Origin: a virus
Taxonomy: Duplodnaviria; Heunggongvirae; Uroviricota; Caudoviricetes
Reading direction: 5' to 3' (one strand)
Virus record (IMG/VR): IMGVR_UViG_2724679236_000006
Coordinates: 1 to 5,330 of that record
Length of the DNA stretch: 5,330 bases
Of this stretch, positions 1 to 5,330 are shown in pieces. The notes under the pieces were generated by a model. That model was given only the letters and a program-made list of their open reading frames with translations, ran no database searches and was not told the DNA's origin. Positions within the stretch are counted from its first letter, which is position 1, and the number at the start of each line of letters is the position of its first letter. Position numbers and translations under genes: made by a program.

Positions 1-7
1 TATCACC

Positions 8-307
8 TCAAATAAGTGGTTTGCTGCCTAATTTCATTTTCTGGCGACCAACACAAGTCACACCCATTTCACTGCGTGGCTTGCGGTAGTAAATACGGTT
101 CTGTTTACGCTCGACTTCTTCTGCCTTCTTGCAGCGAAGGCTTCCGAGTGATGCTGCTTTATCTGCTCTGACGCAACCAGAGAGCTTTAGCGCAATCTTT
201 CGCGCCAGTCGCTGTTCTTGCATTGCCTGTTCACGTTGAGCCTGTCTGCGTGCTCTGCGGCGATTTCTGGCGTTATCGTCAGCCAGATATGTAATGACTA
301 CTGTCAT
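8..307 (-). CDS. N: Antitermination protein N (lambda N family)
   Basis: 99-aa ORF with Arg-rich motif NARNRRRARRQAQREQ near the N-terminus and a C-terminus (YYRKPRSEMGVTCVGRQKMKLGSKPLI) closely resembling my recollection of lambda N (recalled, not searched). SD GGAGG sits 5 nt upstream of the ATG at 305-307. Lies directly downstream of the nutL-like site and pL-like promoter on the same strand. Confidence 0.85.
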   Translation of the reverse strand: MTVVITYLADDNARNRRRARRQAQREQAMQEQRLARKIALKLSGCVRADKAASLGSLRCKKAEEVERKQNRIYYRKPRSEMGVTCVGRQKMKLGSKPLI

Positions 308-413
308 GTTGACCTCCGATGATTGACTTTGGCGGTGACGCGCCGGGTGCTTATCTTCCGGTTGCCGTCGTGCAGCTGCACTTCACGTCACCCCAAAGCC
401 AACTACTCTTTGG

Positions 414-456
414 TTCCCGCATTTCGGCGGGACAATCCCATCAATGTTAAAGAGCT
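414..456 (-). promoter_or_regulatory. nutL-like N-utilisation site (boxA + boxB hairpin)
   Basis: On the minus strand, boxA-like AGCTCTTTAACA (plus 445-456) is followed 12 nt later by TCCCGCCGAAATGCGGGAA (plus 414-432), a 6-7 bp stem with a GAAA-containing loop. The same 19-mer recurs on the plus strand after cro (2110-2128). Position between pL and N matches lambda nutL. Confidence 0.7.
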
Positions 457-501
457 TGCCAATCTGTTCCGTTTGGCTACCAGCGTCCTGCTGATGGCTA
501 A

Positions 502-530
502 AGAATACTGTAGGTATTTTATTGTGTAAA
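502..530 (-). promoter_or_regulatory. pL-like promoter (-35 TTTACA, -10 TATTCT, 17-bp spacer)
   Basis: Minus-strand hexamers TTTACA (plus 525-530) and TATTCT (plus 502-507) with a 17-bp spacer. The -10 overlaps the edge of OL1 exactly as the pR -10 overlaps OR1, and carries the same hexamer. Predicted TSS near 495, about 40 nt upstream of nutL boxA. Confidence 0.5.
503..519. promoter_or_regulatory. Operator OL1 (17 bp, GAATAC-N5-GTATTT)
   Basis: GAATACTGTAGGTATTT, an imperfect palindrome with the same half-sites and 5-bp central spacer as OR1. Confidence 0.55.
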
Positions 531-544
531 TATCCAAGGTATTT
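528..544. promoter_or_regulatory. Operator OL2 (17 bp)
   Basis: AAATATCCAAGGTATTT; half-sites ATAT/GTAT with a 5-bp spacer, centred 25 bp from OL1. Confidence 0.45.
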
Positions 545-572
545 ATTTTTGGTGAAATAATGATAAGTAAAT

Positions 573-589
573 GAATACAAAGGATATTT
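573..589. promoter_or_regulatory. Operator OL3 candidate (17 bp)
   Basis: GAATACAAAGGATATTT; half-sites ATAC/ATAT with a 5-bp spacer, centred 45 bp from OL2. A weaker intermediate candidate lies at about 555-571 (ATAA-N5-AGTA). Confidence 0.4.
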
Positions 590-673
590 ATTTTTCGGTG
601 TCTGCTTGTTCAGTGCTTTTTATGTGGGATATGTGAAGTGGATCCCGATAGCTATTGCTGCCGGGATTATGGG

Positions 674-1042
674 TTAGTCAGCGAAGGTTAAGACGAGAAT
701 TACCTTAATGATGTCTGCTACAATAGACACGGCCATAGATAAACCAAAGACGATCCAAGCCATAGAGATGTCTTCACTACCATCGTATAGAGTTCCGTAA
801 TCACTGGTGTAAGGCGTAAATGTCGCGCCTTGATACAACAGGTATAAGCTTGATCCATAGAGGATAAATGCAGATATCCCTTGTATTGCTATGATCACTA
901 GAATCATGAAACGAGCTGATCTATGCGCCCAAGCCTGGCTTATTTTTTCTGATAGAGATTTCGCAATAAAAGCATGCGCTAAGCCGTAAATTGTCGAGAT
1001 TGCCAACATCCCAAAAAAGCTTGCTATAGCGGTTCCAACCAT
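674..1042 (-). CDS. Small membrane protein with three hydrophobic helices, unknown function; co-transcribed downstream of cI in the rex-locus position
   Basis: ORF 674..1063 on the same strand as cI. Preferred start is the ATG at 1040-1042 (SD-like AAGGGG 5 nt upstream), 18 nt after the cI stop. The alternative TTG at 1061-1063 overlaps the cI TGA (1060-1062). Three long hydrophobic segments (VGTAIASFFGMLAISTIYGLAHAFIA, FMILVIIAIQGISAFILYGSSLYLLY, ISMAWIVFGLSMAVSIVADIIKVILVLTF) flank an acidic/aromatic loop (TPYTSDYGTLYDGSEDIS). GC content looks lower than the replication genes. No family recognised by eye. Confidence 0.7.
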   Translation of the reverse strand: MVGTAIASFFGMLAISTIYGLAHAFIAKSLSEKISQAWAHRSARFMILVIIAIQGISAFILYGSSLYLLYQGATFTPYTSDYGTLYDGSEDISMAWIVFGLSMAVSIVADIIKVILVLTFAD

Positions 1043-1059
1043 AAGCGCCCCTTGCGTGA

Positions 1060-1776
1060 TCAAACCAGCCTTAGTTTTGTCTCAATTGCAACGCCTATAA
1101 TCTTGCAGTTTCCATTGATTGGCACGAGAGGCCATGCAGGGTTAAGTCCCTTGAGGTATTTATTTCCGCCGTCGATTATCAGCTTCTTGAATGTTGCTTC
1201 GTTAGAGTCAGAAAGTTTTGCTATGACCAAGCTGCCGTTGATCGCCTCCCTTCCGGTATCGAAAAGAACGAATGTTCCCTCTGGAATGCTTAACCCAACC
1301 GGTGCCGTCATTGAATCACCTTCCACTTTAAGCCAGAACGCATTACCTTGAATATGCGCGTCAGACTCAAGCCAAACATCTATGTCTTTAATGGTGTATG
1401 GTTCGCATGCTTCACACCACGAGCCAGCCTGGATACTGCTTAACACCGGATACCTCTTTCCTGCTCTGTATTCCCCTGCATACCTTACGTTGGCATCGCT
1501 CTTAAGGCTTTCTGCCTGTTCTGCAACCTTGGCAGCAATTGACTGGCTAAAATCAGCAATTGAGACTTGCAACAATCGTGCAAAACCAGATGCAACCTCA
1601 ACGTTTAGCGCGTTTCTGCCATTAAGATAATGCCCTACCGCTCCTTGGGTGATACCCAGTTCATCAGCGATTGAGTATTGGGTTATTCCCAATTCTTTCT
1701 TTTTTGACTCATACAAAGCCTTAAGCCGCTTAGCGTCTTCGAGCTGTTCTGTCGTCAGTGATTTTTTATTTTCCAT
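1060..1776 (-). CDS. cI: CI-type phage repressor (N-terminal HTH + C-terminal S24 LexA-like autopeptidase domain)
   Basis: 238 aa. N-terminus MENKKSLTTEQLEDAKRLKALYESKKKELGITQ parallels lambda CI. HTH segment QYSIADELGITQGAVGHYLNG. Ala-Gly candidate cleavage sites (RYAGEY / RAGKRY) in the linker. S24 catalytic motifs GDSM (Ser) and FKKL (Lys). Diverges from cro across an operator region. Confidence 0.93.
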   Translation of the reverse strand: MENKKSLTTEQLEDAKRLKALYESKKKELGITQYSIADELGITQGAVGHYLNGRNALNVEVASGFARLLQVSIADFSQSIAAKVAEQAESLKSDANVRYAGEYRAGKRYPVLSSIQAGSWCEACEPYTIKDIDVWLESDAHIQGNAFWLKVEGDSMTAPVGLSIPEGTFVLFDTGREAINGSLVIAKLSDSNEATFKKLIIDGGNKYLKGLNPAWPLVPINGNCKIIGVAIETKLRLV

Positions 1777-1788
1777 AGCTTAATTCTA
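1777..1788 (-). promoter_or_regulatory. pRM-like -10 (TAGAAT) giving a leaderless or near-leaderless cI transcript
   Basis: Minus-strand TAGAAT (plus 1783-1788) ends 6 nt before the cI ATG (plus 1774-1776), with no SD between them. Matches the lambda arrangement where pRM mRNA begins at the cI AUG. The -10 abuts OR3. Confidence 0.4.
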
Positions 1789-1803
1789 ATAGCTAAGGTA
1801 CTT
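1787..1803. promoter_or_regulatory. Operator OR3 candidate (17 bp, degenerate half-sites ATAG/GTAC)
   Basis: TAATAGCTAAGGTACTT; same 4+5+4 architecture, centred 24 bp from OR2; weaker match to consensus, as expected for an OR3. Confidence 0.4.
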
Positions 1804-1810
1804 AAAATAA

Positions 1811-1827
1811 AAATACCTTGAGTATTG
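1811..1827. promoter_or_regulatory. Operator OR2 (17 bp)
   Basis: AAATACCTTGAGTATTG; half-sites ATAC/GTAT with a 5-bp spacer; overlaps the pR -35. Confidence 0.5.
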
Positions 1828-1853
1828 ATTGTTTTGAATACCTGTAGTATTCT
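1825..1853 (+). promoter_or_regulatory. pR-like promoter (-35 TTGATT, -10 TATTCT, 17-bp spacer)
   Basis: TTGATT (1825-1830) and TATTCT (1848-1853). Predicted TSS near 1860, giving a leader of about 22 nt to the cro ATG. Operator overlap mirrors lambda pR/OR1/OR2. Confidence 0.5.
1836..1852. promoter_or_regulatory. Operator OR1 (17 bp, GAATAC-N5-GTATTC)
   Basis: GAATACCTGTAGTATTC, symmetric at 6 of 8 paired positions; centred 25 bp from OR2; overlaps the pR -10. Confidence 0.6.
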
Positions 1854-1882
1854 TTGTTCATGGTTAATAACGGAGAGTGCAT

Positions 1883-2077
1883 ATGATTCGAATGACACTT
1901 GCCGATTACGCCAAAATCCATGGACAGGCTAAAGCAGCCAGTGACTTTGGTGTAATCCAGTGCGCTATCAGCAAGGCCATTCTGGCAGGCCGTAACATCA
2001 TGGTTACGGTAAAGCCTGATGGCAGTGTGATTGGAGAGGAAGTTCGTCCTTTCCCAAGCAACAAGAAAAACAAATAG
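1883..2077 (+). CDS. cro: Cro-type repressor
   Basis: Translation [62 protein letters not shown] parallels lambda Cro along its whole length (recalled, not searched). SD GGAGAG at 1867-1872. ATG 1883 is preferred over 1877 on SD spacing. Confidence 0.9.
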
Positions 2078-2083
2078 TAACAC

Positions 2084-2128
2084 CGCTCTTTAACAGTCAT
2101 GGTCCTCATTCCCGCCGAAATGCGGGAA
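2084..2128 (+). promoter_or_regulatory. nutR-like site (boxA CGCTCTTTAACA + boxB hairpin)
   Basis: boxA CGCTCTTTAACA at 2084-2095, starting 7 nt after the cro stop. boxB TCCCGCCGAAATGCGGGAA at 2110-2128 is identical to the nutL boxB. Confidence 0.75.
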
Positions 2129-2185
2129 TACAACGCGCATACGTTGATGCGCATAACTTCTTATTTGTTAAGGAAATACTTACAT

Positions 2186-2464
2186 ATGGAACTTACAAGT
2201 ACTCGCAAGAAAGCGAATGCAATTACAAGCAACATCCTGAATCGAATTGCTGTACGTGGTCAGCGAAAGGTTGCCGACGCGTTAGGGATTAATGAATCAC
2301 AAATTTCGCGATGGAAAGACAGCTTCATCCCCAAAATGGGAATGCTTCTGGCTGTTCTTGAATGGGGTGTTGAAGACGAGGAGTTGGCGGAACTGGCTAA
2401 GAAAGTAGCCAGAATGCTGACAAAAGAAAAAGCCCCGAAGAACGGCGAATTCTTCGAGGCTTGA
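2186..2464 (+). CDS. cII: CII-type transcriptional activator
   Basis: 92 aa from the ATG at 2186. ILNRIAVRGQRKVADALGINESQISRWKDSFIPKMGMLLAVLEWGVEDEE aligns with lambda CII (recalled). The ORF-track start at 2099 would overlap nutR and is rejected. SD AAGGA lies upstream. Confidence 0.88.
   Translation: MELTSTRKKANAITSNILNRIAVRGQRKVADALGINESQISRWKDSFIPKMGMLLAVLEWGVEDEELAELAKKVARMLTKEKAPKNGEFFEA
2219..2232 (-). promoter_or_regulatory. pRE-like CII-binding site (TTGC-N6-TTGC) inside the cII 5' end
   Basis: Plus GCAATTACAAGCAA is minus TTGCTTGTAATTGC, a direct TTGC repeat with 6-bp spacing, as at lambda pRE. It sits in codons 12-16 of cII, oriented to drive leftward transcription through cro into cI. 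Confidence 0.5.
2421..2459 (-). terminator. Intrinsic terminator on the minus strand (oop-RNA-like antisense terminator overlapping the cII 3' end)
   Basis: Minus-strand RNA CCUCGAAGAA-UUCGCCG-UUCUUCGGGG folds into a 10-bp stem (one G-U pair) with a 7-nt loop, followed by CUUUUUCUUUUG. No U-tract follows the hairpin on the plus strand, so it is unidirectional. Confidence 0.5.
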
Positions 2465-2498
2465 TGTAGAAAGACTGGATCAATCTACAGGAGTAATT

Positions 2499-2660
2499 AT
2501 GACAAAACGTCGTAAGAAATACCAGGAAAAAGAAGAGATTCGACACCCTGATTTACCTGAGGGATTAGTGGTAGCCGCAGCAAATAACAGGGCGTTCGCA
2601 GAGCGCCTTGTTGGTGTTTACAGACTAGCCAAAGCAGGAGTGAAACATGGGTGTCGTTAA
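2499..2660 (+). CDS. Small basic hypothetical protein (53 aa) between cII and O
   Basis: ORF below the track's length cut-off: [60 protein letters not shown] at 2489-2493, 5 nt before the ATG at 2499. Stop at 2658-2660 overlaps the O start by 14 nt. Confidence 0.35.
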   Translation: MTKRRKKYQEKEEIRHPDLPEGLVVAAANNRAFAERLVGVYRLAKAGVKHGCR

Positions 2661-3477
2661 GTTAGCTGATTACAGGCCTCAACTGGAGGTCGTGGAGCAT
2701 CGCGTGGCAGAACTCGAAGATGGCTACACTCGGACTGCAAACACACTGTTAGAAGCCGCCATGCTTTCTGGGCTTACTCTACATCAGTTACTGATTGTTA
2801 TGGCTGTGTGGCGCAAGACATACGGTTACAACAAAAAAATAGATTGGATCGGAAACGAACAGTTCGCTGAACTCACTGGCATGGCACCAACCAAATGTTC
2901 TACCGCCAAAAACGAGCTTATCAGAATGGGAGTTCTCATTCAGGTGGGGCGTCAAGTTGGTATGAATACAAACATTTCCGAGTGGAAAACGAAAGTTAAC
3001 GGATTTGGTAAAACATTTACCAATTCGGTAAAACAAACCTTCACTAAATCGGTAAAAAGCAATTTACCGAATCAGTCAAACACAAAAGACAATATACAAA
3101 AGACAATAAATACAAATACCCCCTTACCCCCTAACGGGGGCGGCGATGGGCAGGTTAAACCTGAACGTCGCAAGGCAGAACGCATCGACTACGAATCCTT
3201 CCTGAACGCCTACAACACCGAAGTCGGTGACAGACTGCCACACGCTGTTGCGGTCAACGAGAAACGCAAACGCCGCCTGAAGAAAATCATCCCGCAACTG
3301 AAAACGCCAAACGTGGACGGTTTCAGAGCGTATGTCAGGGCGTTTGTGCATCAGGCCAAGCCGTTTTACTTCGGAGACAACGACACGGGCTGGACGGCAG
3401 ATTTTGATTACCTGCTGAGGGAAGATTCGTTAACGGGAGTACGGGAAGGGAAGTTTGCAGACAGGGGAATTGCATGA
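2647..3477 (+). CDS. O: Replication initiator, lambda O family (ori-binding)
   Basis: 276 aa. [18 protein letters not shown]...[16 protein letters not shown]...[18 protein letters not shown]...NTNISEW parallels the lambda O N-terminal domain (recalled). Iteron and AT-rich ori sequence embedded mid-gene. In-frame stop immediately upstream of the ATG; SD AGGAG at 2633-2637. Stop overlaps the helicase start (ATGA at 3474-3477). Confidence 0.9.
3005..3120. repeat. Origin-like iterons plus AT-rich tract inside the O gene
   Basis: Three copies of GGTAAAA (3007, 3027, 3051). Two sit in near-palindromic iterons: TTGGTAAAACATTTACCAA (3005-3023) and TCGGTAAAAAGCAATTTACCGA (3049-3070). Followed by an A-rich tract at 3073-3117. 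They encode a low-complexity linker ([16 protein letters not shown]...), as in lambda. Confidence 0.6.
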
Positions 3478-4850
3478 AACAGGATATCGAAGCGAGCGTT
3501 ATCGGTGGCCTGCTGATTGGTGGATTAACACCAGCCGCCAGTGACGTTCTGGCAACGCTTGAGCCGGAAGCGTTTTCAATTCCGCTCTACCGGAAAGCCT
3601 TCGAGGTTATCCGCAAGCAGGCGAGAAACAGAAACCTAATCGACGCACTGATGGTTGCTGAGGAATGCGGAGAGGAGCATTTCACGTCAATCCTGATGAC
3701 CAGCAAAAACTGCCCGAGCGCCGCAAACCTGAAGGGATATGCCGGAATGGTCGCGGATAACTATCACCGCCGTCTGGTGCTGGAAATCATGGATGAAATG
3801 CGTGAACCAATTCAGAGCGGAACCATCGACGCATCGAGTCAGGCGATGGATGAACTTGTAAAGCGTCTTTCAGCCATCAGAAAGCCCCGTGACGAGGTTA
3901 AACCTGTACGGTTAGGGGAAATCATCACTGACTACACTGACACGCTTGACAGGCGTCTGAGGAACGGAGAAGAGTCAGATGCCCTGAAGACCGGAATCGA
4001 AGAACTTGATGCCATCACCGGAGGGATGAACGCAGAAGACCTGGTTATTATCGCCGCTCGTCCTGGTATGGGGAAAACCGAACTGGCGCTGAAGATTGCC
4101 GAAGGCGTTGCAAGCCGCGTTATCCCTGGTTCTGACGTTCAGCGCGGAGTGTTGATTTTCTCGATGGAAATGAGCGCATTGCAGATTGCAGAGCGAAGCA
4201 TCGCCAACGCCGGGAGGATGTCGGTTAGCGTGCTGCGAAATCCTGCATCGATGGATGACGAAGGCTGGGCGCGCGTTGCTAACAGCATGAGTCAGCTTGC
4301 AGATTTGGATGTATGGGTAGTCGATGCCTCGCGGTTATCGGTTGAAGAAATTCGCTCAATTGCAGAGCGGCACAAACAGGAAAATCCAAACCTGTCACTA
4401 ATCATGGTGGATTATCTTGGACTGATTGAGAAGCCGAAAGCAGACCGCAACGACCTCGCAATTGCTCACATCTCAGGAAGCCTGAAGGCGATGGCGAAAG
4501 ACCTGAAAACGCCTGTTATCTCCCTGAGTCAGCTTTCACGCGATGTTGAGAAGCGACCAAACAAACGCCCGACAAACGCAGATTTGCGTGATTCAGGAAG
4601 CATTGAACAGGACGCAGACTCAATCATCATGCTCTATCGGGAAGCGGTATATGACGAGAACAGTAGCGCCGCGCCATTTGCTGAAATCATCGTGACGAAA
4701 AACCGTTTTGGCTCACTTGGTACGGTTTACCAGCTGTTCTGCAACGGACACTTTGTTGCATGTGACCAGGATGAAGCCAGACAGATTTGCACAGCATCAA
4801 ATGCACCTGCTGCGCGTGGCAGACGATATGCACAAGGGGCTGACGTATGA
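3474..4850 (+). CDS. Replicative DNA helicase, DnaB family
   Basis: 458 aa. Walker [10 protein letters not shown], Walker B-like LIMVDYLGL, and [33 protein letters not shown] typical of DnaB C-terminal motifs. Translationally coupled to O. This is a P22 gene-12-type arrangement rather than a lambda P helicase loader. Confidence 0.9.
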
Positions 4851-4875
4851 CAATCTACATCACTGAGCTAATAAC

Positions 4876-4906
4876 AGGCCTGCTGGTAATCGCAGGCCTT
4901 TTTATT
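4876..4906 (+). terminator. Rho-independent terminator (tR2-like) after the helicase gene
   Basis: AGGCCTGC-TGGTAATC-GCAGGCCT (8-bp perfect stem, 8-nt loop) followed by TTTTTATT, 26 nt after the helicase stop. Confidence 0.7.
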
Positions 4907-4921
4907 GGGGGAGAGTAAATC

Positions 4922-5248
4922 GTGGCTGACTGGCAAATACCAATCATCATTCTTGCCGGAGCTTCGCTGGTTGCTGGCTTTATCCTGCTGAAAAAGCATA
5001 AAGACCGTGATCAAAAAGTCGAAGTTCTCTATGGGTATCCAGCGAACAGCACAACATGGCTGACCATTTACCACTACCGAAAATCAGGACGCTGGGTATT
5101 CGAATGGGATGATCTGTTCGCTGACAGGCGACCGAAGTCATTGGGAGACATCAGCGAATGCATGATGTTTGAAGAAAGAAAATCCGGCGCAACTCGAGAA
5201 GAGTTTAACGAAGCGTGGAGGCGATTAAGTGAGAGAGGGTATCAATGA
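4922..5248 (+). CDS. Hypothetical protein with N-terminal transmembrane anchor (108 aa)
   Basis: GTG start at 4922 with SD GGGGGAGAG at 4906-4914. N-terminal hydrophobic helix IPIIILAGASLVAGFILL followed by a KKHKDRDQK stop-transfer-like stretch, then a charged and aromatic soluble domain. No family recognised. Confidence 0.55.
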   Translation: MADWQIPIIILAGASLVAGFILLKKHKDRDQKVEVLYGYPANSTTWLTIYHYRKSGRWVFEWDDLFADRRPKSLGDISECMMFEERKSGATREEFNEAWRRLSERGYQ

Positions 5249-5270
5249 GCAGAATTAAGTCGAGGTAACG

Positions 5271-5330
5271 ATGAAGCAAATATACATGCTTCGCAACGAA
5301 GCAATCAGAAATAACGCCATAGACGCAATA
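5271..5330 (+). CDS. ninB: 5' end of a downstream gene, possibly NinB/Orf-family recombination protein (partial, runs off the window)
   Basis: ATG at 5271 with SD GAGGT upstream. The first 20 codons (MKQIYMLRNEAIRNNAIDAI) loosely resemble the lambda NinB N-terminus (recalled). Too short to be sure. Confidence 0.35.
   Translation, partial: MKQIYMLRNEAIRNNAIDAI

Follow-up and report, generated by a model that had tools for sequence, protein, structure and literature searches.

In phage lambda, cII ends at position 38653 and gene O starts at 38686, which leaves a gap of 32 nt without any gene in it. The window analysed here, that is, the whole stretch of 5,330 nucleotides (positions 1 to 5,330 of the IMG/VR virus record IMGVR_UViG_2724679236_000006, Caudoviricetes), is a lambdoid immunity-replication region in which the corresponding gap between cII and the replication initiator (2465-2646) measures 182 nt. 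A preliminary description of this DNA had pointed to the expanded spacer and to an ORF inside it that is extra relative to lambda, and both hold. The questions that this locus raises are whether such a small ORF is a gene, whether it is a new one, and what it might do at the border between the lysis-lysogeny circuit (cII, oop) and the replication genes. The features needed to follow the argument are these:

8-307, minus strand: N-like antiterminator (phrog_271)
674-1063, minus strand: strongly hydrophobic ORF of 122-129 aa (phrog_6534; function label: unknown)
1060-1776, minus strand: cI-type repressor
1883-2077, plus strand: cro
2186-2464, plus strand: cII-like transcriptional activator (Pfam Phage_CII, E 1.2e-42; phrog_191)
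2422-2488, minus strand: predicted oop-like antisense RNA of about 67 nt (terminator scan and fold)
2474-2506, no strand assigned: lambdoid "boundary sequence" of 33 bp (Sf6 bsq5; HK620 "sequence 5"), 30/33 identical to lambda 38661-38693
2489-2493, plus strand: Shine-Dalgarno AGGAG of the small ORF, 5 nt before its ATG; lambda gene O uses the same ribosome binding site (RBS)
2496-2504, minus strand (read 2504 to 2496): extended -10 of the oop promoter pO, TGTCATAAT, the reverse complement of ATT-ATG-ACA
2499-2660, plus strand: small ORF of 53 codons, HK97 gp53 family (PHROG 1331)
2636-2640, plus strand: Shine-Dalgarno AGGAG of the initiator, within codons 46-48 of the small ORF and 6 nt before the initiator ATG
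2647-3477, plus strand: O-like / P22 gene 18-like replication initiator (Pfam Phage_rep_O, E 4e-36)
3474-4850, plus strand: DnaB-type replicative helicase, P22 gene 12-like (Pfam DnaB_C, E 4e-79; DnaB, E 9.5e-14)

The cII gene stops with the TGA at 2462-2464, and its 3' end is shared with the terminator of the oop-like RNA. The product of the small ORF has 53 aa (MTKRRKKYQEK...GCR); the canonical Shine-Dalgarno and the basic N-terminus ascribed to it beforehand are present as described. Its TAA (2658-2660) comes 11 nt after the initiator ATG, which gives an overlap of 14 nt with the initiator in the +1 frame, and the DnaB-type helicase follows as the third gene of the replication module.

The coding status of the small ORF was addressed with 111 loci that carry a homologue, taken from annotated phages, GTDB genomes, IMG/VR contigs, and assemblies of Escherichia, Salmonella, Shigella, Enterobacter, Cronobacter, Citrobacter, Edwardsiella, Trabulsiella, Chimaeribacter, and Entomohabitans. 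The frame is intact in all 111, with 52-57 codons and the same start and stop geometry, and the differences in length are due to in-frame indels only. Selection was estimated by the pooled Nei-Gojobori method on 29 different alleles, which represent at least 10 genera of enterobacteria, with a codon bootstrap. Over the whole small ORF omega is 0.20 (bootstrap 0.14-0.29; dS 1.06), and over its central part, defined as the codons that neither the oop promoter nor the initiator overlaps, it is 0.16 (0.10-0.24; dS 1.23). Synonymous sites are therefore near saturation while the peptide sequence is under purifying selection. In the central part the minimum numbers of changes at the three codon positions are 30, 20, and 69, so that the third position dominates, and the invariant residues are spread through codons 20-47. 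When the same columns were read in the alternative frames, three of the five gave ratios of 1.15-4.2; the antisense frame that shares the wobble position gave 0.25, as expected for it, with stops in 13 of 26 alleles, and the forward alternative frames contain 1-6 stops. The check proposed in advance, conservation of the frame together with the balance of synonymous and non-synonymous change, thus came out on the side of coding, with no frame-breaking indel, and the earlier doubt that the ORF might be non-coding was not borne out. Judged from these comparisons, the small ORF between cII and the initiator is a real protein-coding gene. Compared with the common gp53 allele, the one in the window differs by S19L (2553-2555) and R52C (2652-2654), both private to it; the CGT-to-TGT change that causes R52C is silent for the initiator, whose overlapping codon goes from GGC to GGT.

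The gene is not a new one. Its peptide matches phrog_1331 with E 4.5e-35, residues 1-53 aligning to profile positions 1-53 of 53, and its amino acid identity to database members is 94-96%. PHROG 1331 comprises HK97 gp53, Sf6 gene 42, ST104 orf27, ES18 gp58, and Stx2-1717 gp23, and the window ORF is a member of this HK97 gp53 family by every feature compared: 96% identity to the common allele, the same length, the slot between cII/oop and the initiator, and the 14-nt overlap, with S19L and R52C as the only differences. The overlap with the initiator in the early-right operon is found as well in HK97, Sf6, ST104, ES18, Stx2-1717, mEpX2, and more than 100 contigs. Homologues in the mEp and HK phage records are named "hypothetical proteins", the gene is also annotated in Stx phages, and among 5,426 complete E. 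coli genomes PGAP calls it in 573, likewise as a hypothetical protein; wherever annotated, its place is after cII and before the initiator. In a few database records the region is counted as part of an "O protein". The layout cII-oop-"orf"-O-P has been described in print, with the statement that lambda "is naturally missing" the orf, and in the alignment given there position 1 is the ATG of lambda O, of the P22 orf48 homologues, or of the HK97 gp53 homologues (Hayes et al., 2012; PMC3349717). The expectation that such an ORF would normally be missed is thus contradicted by the annotations in HK97, Sf6, ST104, ES18, the mEp and Stx phages, and the PGAP E. coli genomes. The small ORF belongs to a known gene family, annotated in lambdoid phages since about 2000, and the finding is correct without being new; as gene, position, boundary block, and overlap with the oop promoter are all in databases and in print, its value as a discovery is low. 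Its distribution gives it some weight, since the small protein is encoded by roughly a tenth of complete E. coli genomes, with Stx prophages of O157:H7 among its carriers, and by many Salmonella and Shigella phages. No functional study of the HK97 gp53 or P22 orf48 types was found in the literature searched.

As regards the protein itself, the gp53 type gave no match in Pfam (cut-off E <= 0.1), NCBIfam, or PADLOC, and none in the PDB by sequence profile. AlphaFold2 with the family alignment returned a low-confidence model (mean pLDDT 66.7) in which residues 1-20 are charged and unstructured, probably disordered, followed by predicted helices at 21-29 and 31-49; a Foldseek search of the PDB with this low-confidence model as query retrieved no relatives. 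The invariant residues (L23, V24, A27, N30, F33, A34, E35, R36, G39, A44, and G47) fall mostly in the helical part. An exhaustive HMM search against 1.84 billion representatives yielded 23 small proteins, all of 84 aa or shorter, and no fused homologue. The family is therefore narrow and recent-looking.

The left end of the small gene coincides with a conserved junction. The 33-bp boundary block, which is annotated in the Sf6 record as bsq5 exactly at the equivalent place and has also been described by others (PMC3349717), contains the 5' end of oop, the Shine-Dalgarno and ATG of the small ORF, and the -10 of the oop promoter. In a local alignment the ATG of the small ORF (2499) falls on the ATG of lambda O (38686). 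The extended -10 of pO overlaps the start codon and codon 2, and the first three codons of the gene form part of the promoter. Lambda pO has the same element, and a mutation of its -10 has been described (PMC3349717). Codon 2 reads ACA, CCA, GCA, or TCA across alleles, so that CA, the TG of the extended -10, is always kept while the amino acid varies, and the -10-like hexamer is kept in 26 of 26 alleles. A simple scan for paired hexamers recovered no full sigma-70 site, so that the -35 is weak.

The 5' end of the predicted oop-like RNA was placed at 2488 by alignment to the lambda oop start (38675), 1 nt from the Shine-Dalgarno of the small ORF. Its terminator, a 14-bp hairpin (2462 to 2430) with a T-run (2429 to 2420), lies inside the 3' end of cII, and the fold (dG -27.8 kcal/mol, z -6.2) has two hairpins, a 5' stem-loop and the terminator, as in lambda oop (77 nt). 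A hairpin with a T-run is kept in at least 24 of the 26 alleles, 63-89 nt from the -10-like hexamer, with about 20 different stem sequences, and is kept even where a YdaT-type gene stands upstream in place of cII. In the P22 record an oop terminator, an oop promoter, and orf48 are annotated between c1 and gene 18. Rfam returned no oop-family match in the window (E <= 1). Synthesis of the oop RNA and a lowering of cII expression by it have been shown only for lambda and lambda/P22 hybrids (PMC3349717). An oop-like RNA is thus predicted to be made beside the small gene, and gene and antisense unit coexist. It had been suggested that an antisense promoter might explain the region entirely; this was right as to the position of pO on the start codon and as to the predicted RNA running from 2488 to 2422, but it would explain no more than the first few codons and leaves the protein-level constraint on codons 12-44 unexplained. 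In comparison with the cII-oop-pO-O junction of lambda, then, the window shares the block (30/33), the position of the ATG, the extended -10 TGTCATAAT on the opposite strand, and a two-hairpin RNA ending inside cII. It differs in that the lambda ATG opens gene O itself, whereas here it opens a separate gene of 53 codons, and 148 nt further on the initiator has a second Shine-Dalgarno and ATG. The RNA predicted here is also shorter (about 67 nt versus 77) and has another terminator stem.

The same slot is occupied differently in other phages. P22 orf48 (Pfam DUF2740, PHROG 1913) starts at the ATG of the boundary block and overlaps gene 18 by 8 nt, an overlap that is constant in the orf48 family, and purifying selection acts on this type as well (omega 0.25, 0.07-0.74). 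It resembles the gene of the window in its slot, in taking its Shine-Dalgarno and ATG from the boundary block, in being small and basic, in overlapping the initiator, and in the kinds of initiator and helicase that follow. The sequences are unrelated, and the initiator behind orf48 has the N-terminus MSNLAT or MSNISN, not the decapeptide linked to gp53. A homology between the two types, suggested by eye from a shared pattern (xAExxxxVxxLxKxG), was discarded at an hhalign probability of 0.4%, and the window ORF gave no hit to DUF2740 (PF10872) or any other Pfam family at E <= 0.1. In RefSeq, P22 orf48 (NC_002371, 32349-32495; locus L017, 1350-1496) is called "tail protein", as is PHROG 1913; this looks like an annotation error, because the gene, a member of Pfam DUF2740, lies between c1 and the replication gene 18.

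Viral contigs were scanned for the boundary block, and the 79 with enough downstream DNA were classified. The block is followed directly by a lambda-type O and then a lambda P-type loader, with no small ORF, in 27 of them. Another 45 (27 gp53-type and 18 orf48-type) have a small ORF, an initiator, and then a phage-encoded helicase of DnaB or primase type; the remaining contigs are incomplete, and none is of a mixed kind. One and the same P22 18-like initiator domain is found after both kinds of small ORF, and each kind brings its own initiator N-terminus. In two IMG/VR loci (L217 and L156) the slot holds a 214-aa T5orf172/MUG113 protein, a third kind of cargo after the boundary block, and the next genes encode an O-like initiator and an IstB/DnaC-like AAA+ loader. 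The converse scan, anchored on the helicase gene, gave 77 usable loci, 48 with a gp53-type ORF, one with an orf48-type ORF, and 28 with none. These 28 have the same DnaB-type helicase and an initiator with a related C-terminal region, behind an unrelated upstream gene and no boundary block. In L237 and 27 similar IMG/VR loci the initiator has 315 aa (MSNTAKIYDF...), and it is preceded by a 90-aa gene with no Pfam hit and no cII. The small ORF is therefore not obligatory for the DnaB-type replication system, and the idea of an obligatory accessory of helicase-type modules was dropped. What remains of the correlation between small ORF and helicase is confounded by shared ancestry, and the small ORF goes with the cII-oop context.

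At the right end, the overlap between the stop of the small gene and the start of the initiator, which had been noted from the window, proved to be kept in every allele. It is invariably 14 nt in the 26 alleles first examined; outliers at the edge of the family have overlaps of 17 and 26 nt with a changed junction sequence and initiators that start MAATVTSLDDYR or MGNAARHL. The initiator start in all 26 alleles reads (A/G)TG GGC GTC GTT AAG, with GTG in three of them, and in every allele the initiator has its own Shine-Dalgarno (GGAG or GGGG), which is carried together with the start by the last 8 codons of the small ORF. The first 10 codons of the initiator (2647-2676) belong to the same conserved cassette, since the decapeptide is common to three initiator clusters. 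Past it the initiators diverge into at least three clusters: one like lambda O and P22 18, one like HK022 gp54 and Sf6 gp43 (no Pfam hit), and one of 386 aa. Megablast identity to mEpX2, HK542, and IME10 ends at window position 2677; given this and the divergence of the initiators, the evolutionary unit runs from the oop terminator to initiator codon 10, comprising the oop terminator, the oop promoter, the RBS, the small gene, and initiator codons 1-10. It is joined on the left to cII-type or YdaT-type genes and on the right to at least three initiator clusters.

Across loci L001-L112, all initiators behind a gp53-type ORF share the decapeptide whatever their DNA-binding domain, those linked to orf48 start MSNLAT or MSNISN, and the initiator found without a small ORF begins MSNTAKIYDF, like lambda O (MTNTAKILNF). 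A short N-terminal tag therefore seems to be conserved across otherwise unrelated initiators. The MGVVKL... start may resemble the ClpX recognition signal at the N-terminus of lambda O.

The persistent overlap suggests translational coupling of the initiator to the small gene, with which the geometry agrees. The fold of 2590-2700 (MFE -31.7 versus a shuffle mean of -31.3; z -0.12) gave no sign that the initiator RBS is sequestered. As the mRNA structure is insignificant and the initiator has a good Shine-Dalgarno of its own, coupling is not demonstrably required. Coupling through a leader peptide under antisense control is known from plasmids, namely R1 (tap/CopA-repA) and IncI (repY/Inc RNA-repZ). 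These systems are like the window in having a small ORF that overlaps the downstream initiator and an antisense RNA next to the start of that ORF. They are unlike it in three respects: the peptide of the window is conserved at the protein level, its initiator RBS is not detectably sequestered, and the known target of oop is the upstream cII, not the leader.

Taking these results together, the reading that we consider probable is that of a gene of the early-right operon which uses the lambda-O RBS, is locked to the oop promoter at one end and to the initiator start at the other, is probably coupled to the initiator, and encodes a peptide with a role in trans. Expression as part of the early operon is supported by a simple consensus scan of 2100-2900, in which neither a sigma-70-like promoter nor a plus-strand terminator came up. 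Ribosomes that finish the small gene would terminate in the start region of the initiator and would help initiation there. Whatever initiator had been recombined in, its synthesis would in this way remain linked to the conserved signals upstream, and these signals would include the pairing site of the oop RNA, which ends 1 nt before the Shine-Dalgarno of the small gene. As the peptide sequence is under purifying selection, the peptide would also have to act in trans, besides any coupling in cis. From timing and position, the most likely guess, offered tentatively, is that the small protein helps to start phage DNA replication or to adjust it. We give little credence to a broader proposal, that the gp53 and orf48 types are functional analogues, small trans-acting proteins that tune the production or activity of the initiator specifically in those lambdoid replication modules that bring their own helicase. 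If it were true, the gp53/orf48 class, with its synthesis set by the conserved RBS next to oop and pO, would be the phage counterpart of the antisense-controlled leader ORFs of plasmids, with an active peptide.

The main rival, which we regard as unlikely but by no means negligible, sees the small gene as accessory cargo at a recombination hot spot, serving, for example, anti-defence, host takeover, or competition between phages, with no part in replication and an overlap due to genome compaction. Several of the observations above fit it: the slot after the boundary block holds unrelated genes (gp53-type, orf48/DUF2740, and the 214-aa T5orf172/MUG113 protein) and is empty in lambda; gp53-type and orf48 ORFs are interchangeable before the same type of initiator; the same helicase also occurs in replication modules that lack a small ORF; and the family is narrow and recent-looking, with 23 representatives among 1.84 billion. 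Classical morons, in contrast, are unlike this gene, which lies inside the N-dependent early operon with neither promoter nor terminator of its own in the simple scan of 2100-2900, and it has no PADLOC match. The overlap with the initiator start, moreover, persists where the junction sequence has changed, and among contigs with the boundary block all 45 that have a small ORF carry helicase-type modules, while the 27 with the lambda P type have no small ORF. It is also conceivable that translation alone matters, as in R1 tap or IncI repY, so that the small ORF would open or feed the initiator start under antisense control and its peptide would be functionless. The stop inside the initiator start region in all alleles, the pairing of the oop-like RNA up to 1 nt before the Shine-Dalgarno, and the occupation of the slot by two unrelated peptides would all agree with such a pure leader. 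We nevertheless hold it to be improbable, considering the purifying selection on amino acids (omega 0.16 at dS 1.2), with invariant residues through codons 20-47, the lack of a significant RNA structure that hides the initiator RBS, and a length of 53 codons, long for a leader peptide.

Still further from the evidence is the possibility that the frame is incidental and that the region is conserved for the oop promoter, for cis-elements of replication, or for mRNA structure. Both ends of the ORF do serve other signals, since the first three codons lie within pO, with codon 2 keeping CA whatever the amino acid, and the last 8 hold the Shine-Dalgarno and start of the initiator. Between them, however, stand more than 30 central codons with changes dominated by the third position and an omega of 0.16, in a frame that is open in 111 of 111 loci against 1-6 stops in the forward alternative frames, with indels in multiples of three and an insignificant mRNA fold, which makes this explanation highly improbable. 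The least credible proposal treats the small ORF as extending the initiator at its N-terminus, with a programmed +1 frameshift of the ribosome within the 14-nt overlap to connect the two. The initiator does lie in the +1 frame and overlaps, and a few records call the region "O protein". Yet no motif that is slippery or prone to shifting is present in the stretch GTG AAA CAT GGG TGT CGT TAA, all alleles provide the initiator with a Shine-Dalgarno and an ATG or GTG of its own, the overlap varies among relatives (8, 14, 17, and 26 nt), and the 23 representatives, all of 84 aa or shorter, include no fusion. With no slippery site and no fused homologue among 1.84 billion representatives, a frameshift fusion was rejected.

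Some other features of the window deserve mention. The hydrophobic ORF at 674-1063 lies between the N-like gene and the repressor, where other lambdoid phages carry exclusion genes of the rex or sieB type. An 18-nt nut-like hairpin, TCCCGC-N6-GCGGGA, occurs twice (415-432 and 2110-2127; 0 expected by chance), with complementary loops, and flanks the immunity region; the positions of the two copies and the neighbouring CGCTCTTTAA fit nutL and nutR sites of the boxB type, on which the N-like antiterminator (8-307, minus strand) would act. Inside the initiator gene there are four iteron-like repeats of 23 nt (2991-3080; spacing 20-24 nt), followed by two tandem AT-rich 14-mers (3082-3109), as expected for an origin of the lambda/P22 type. 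Directly 3' of the helicase gene, at 4868-4905, a GC-rich hairpin is followed by a T-run (AACAGGCCTGC...GCAGGCCTTTTTATT), and in the P22 and Sf6 records the equivalent of this stretch is a lambda tR2-like terminator with the boundary sequence bsq6.
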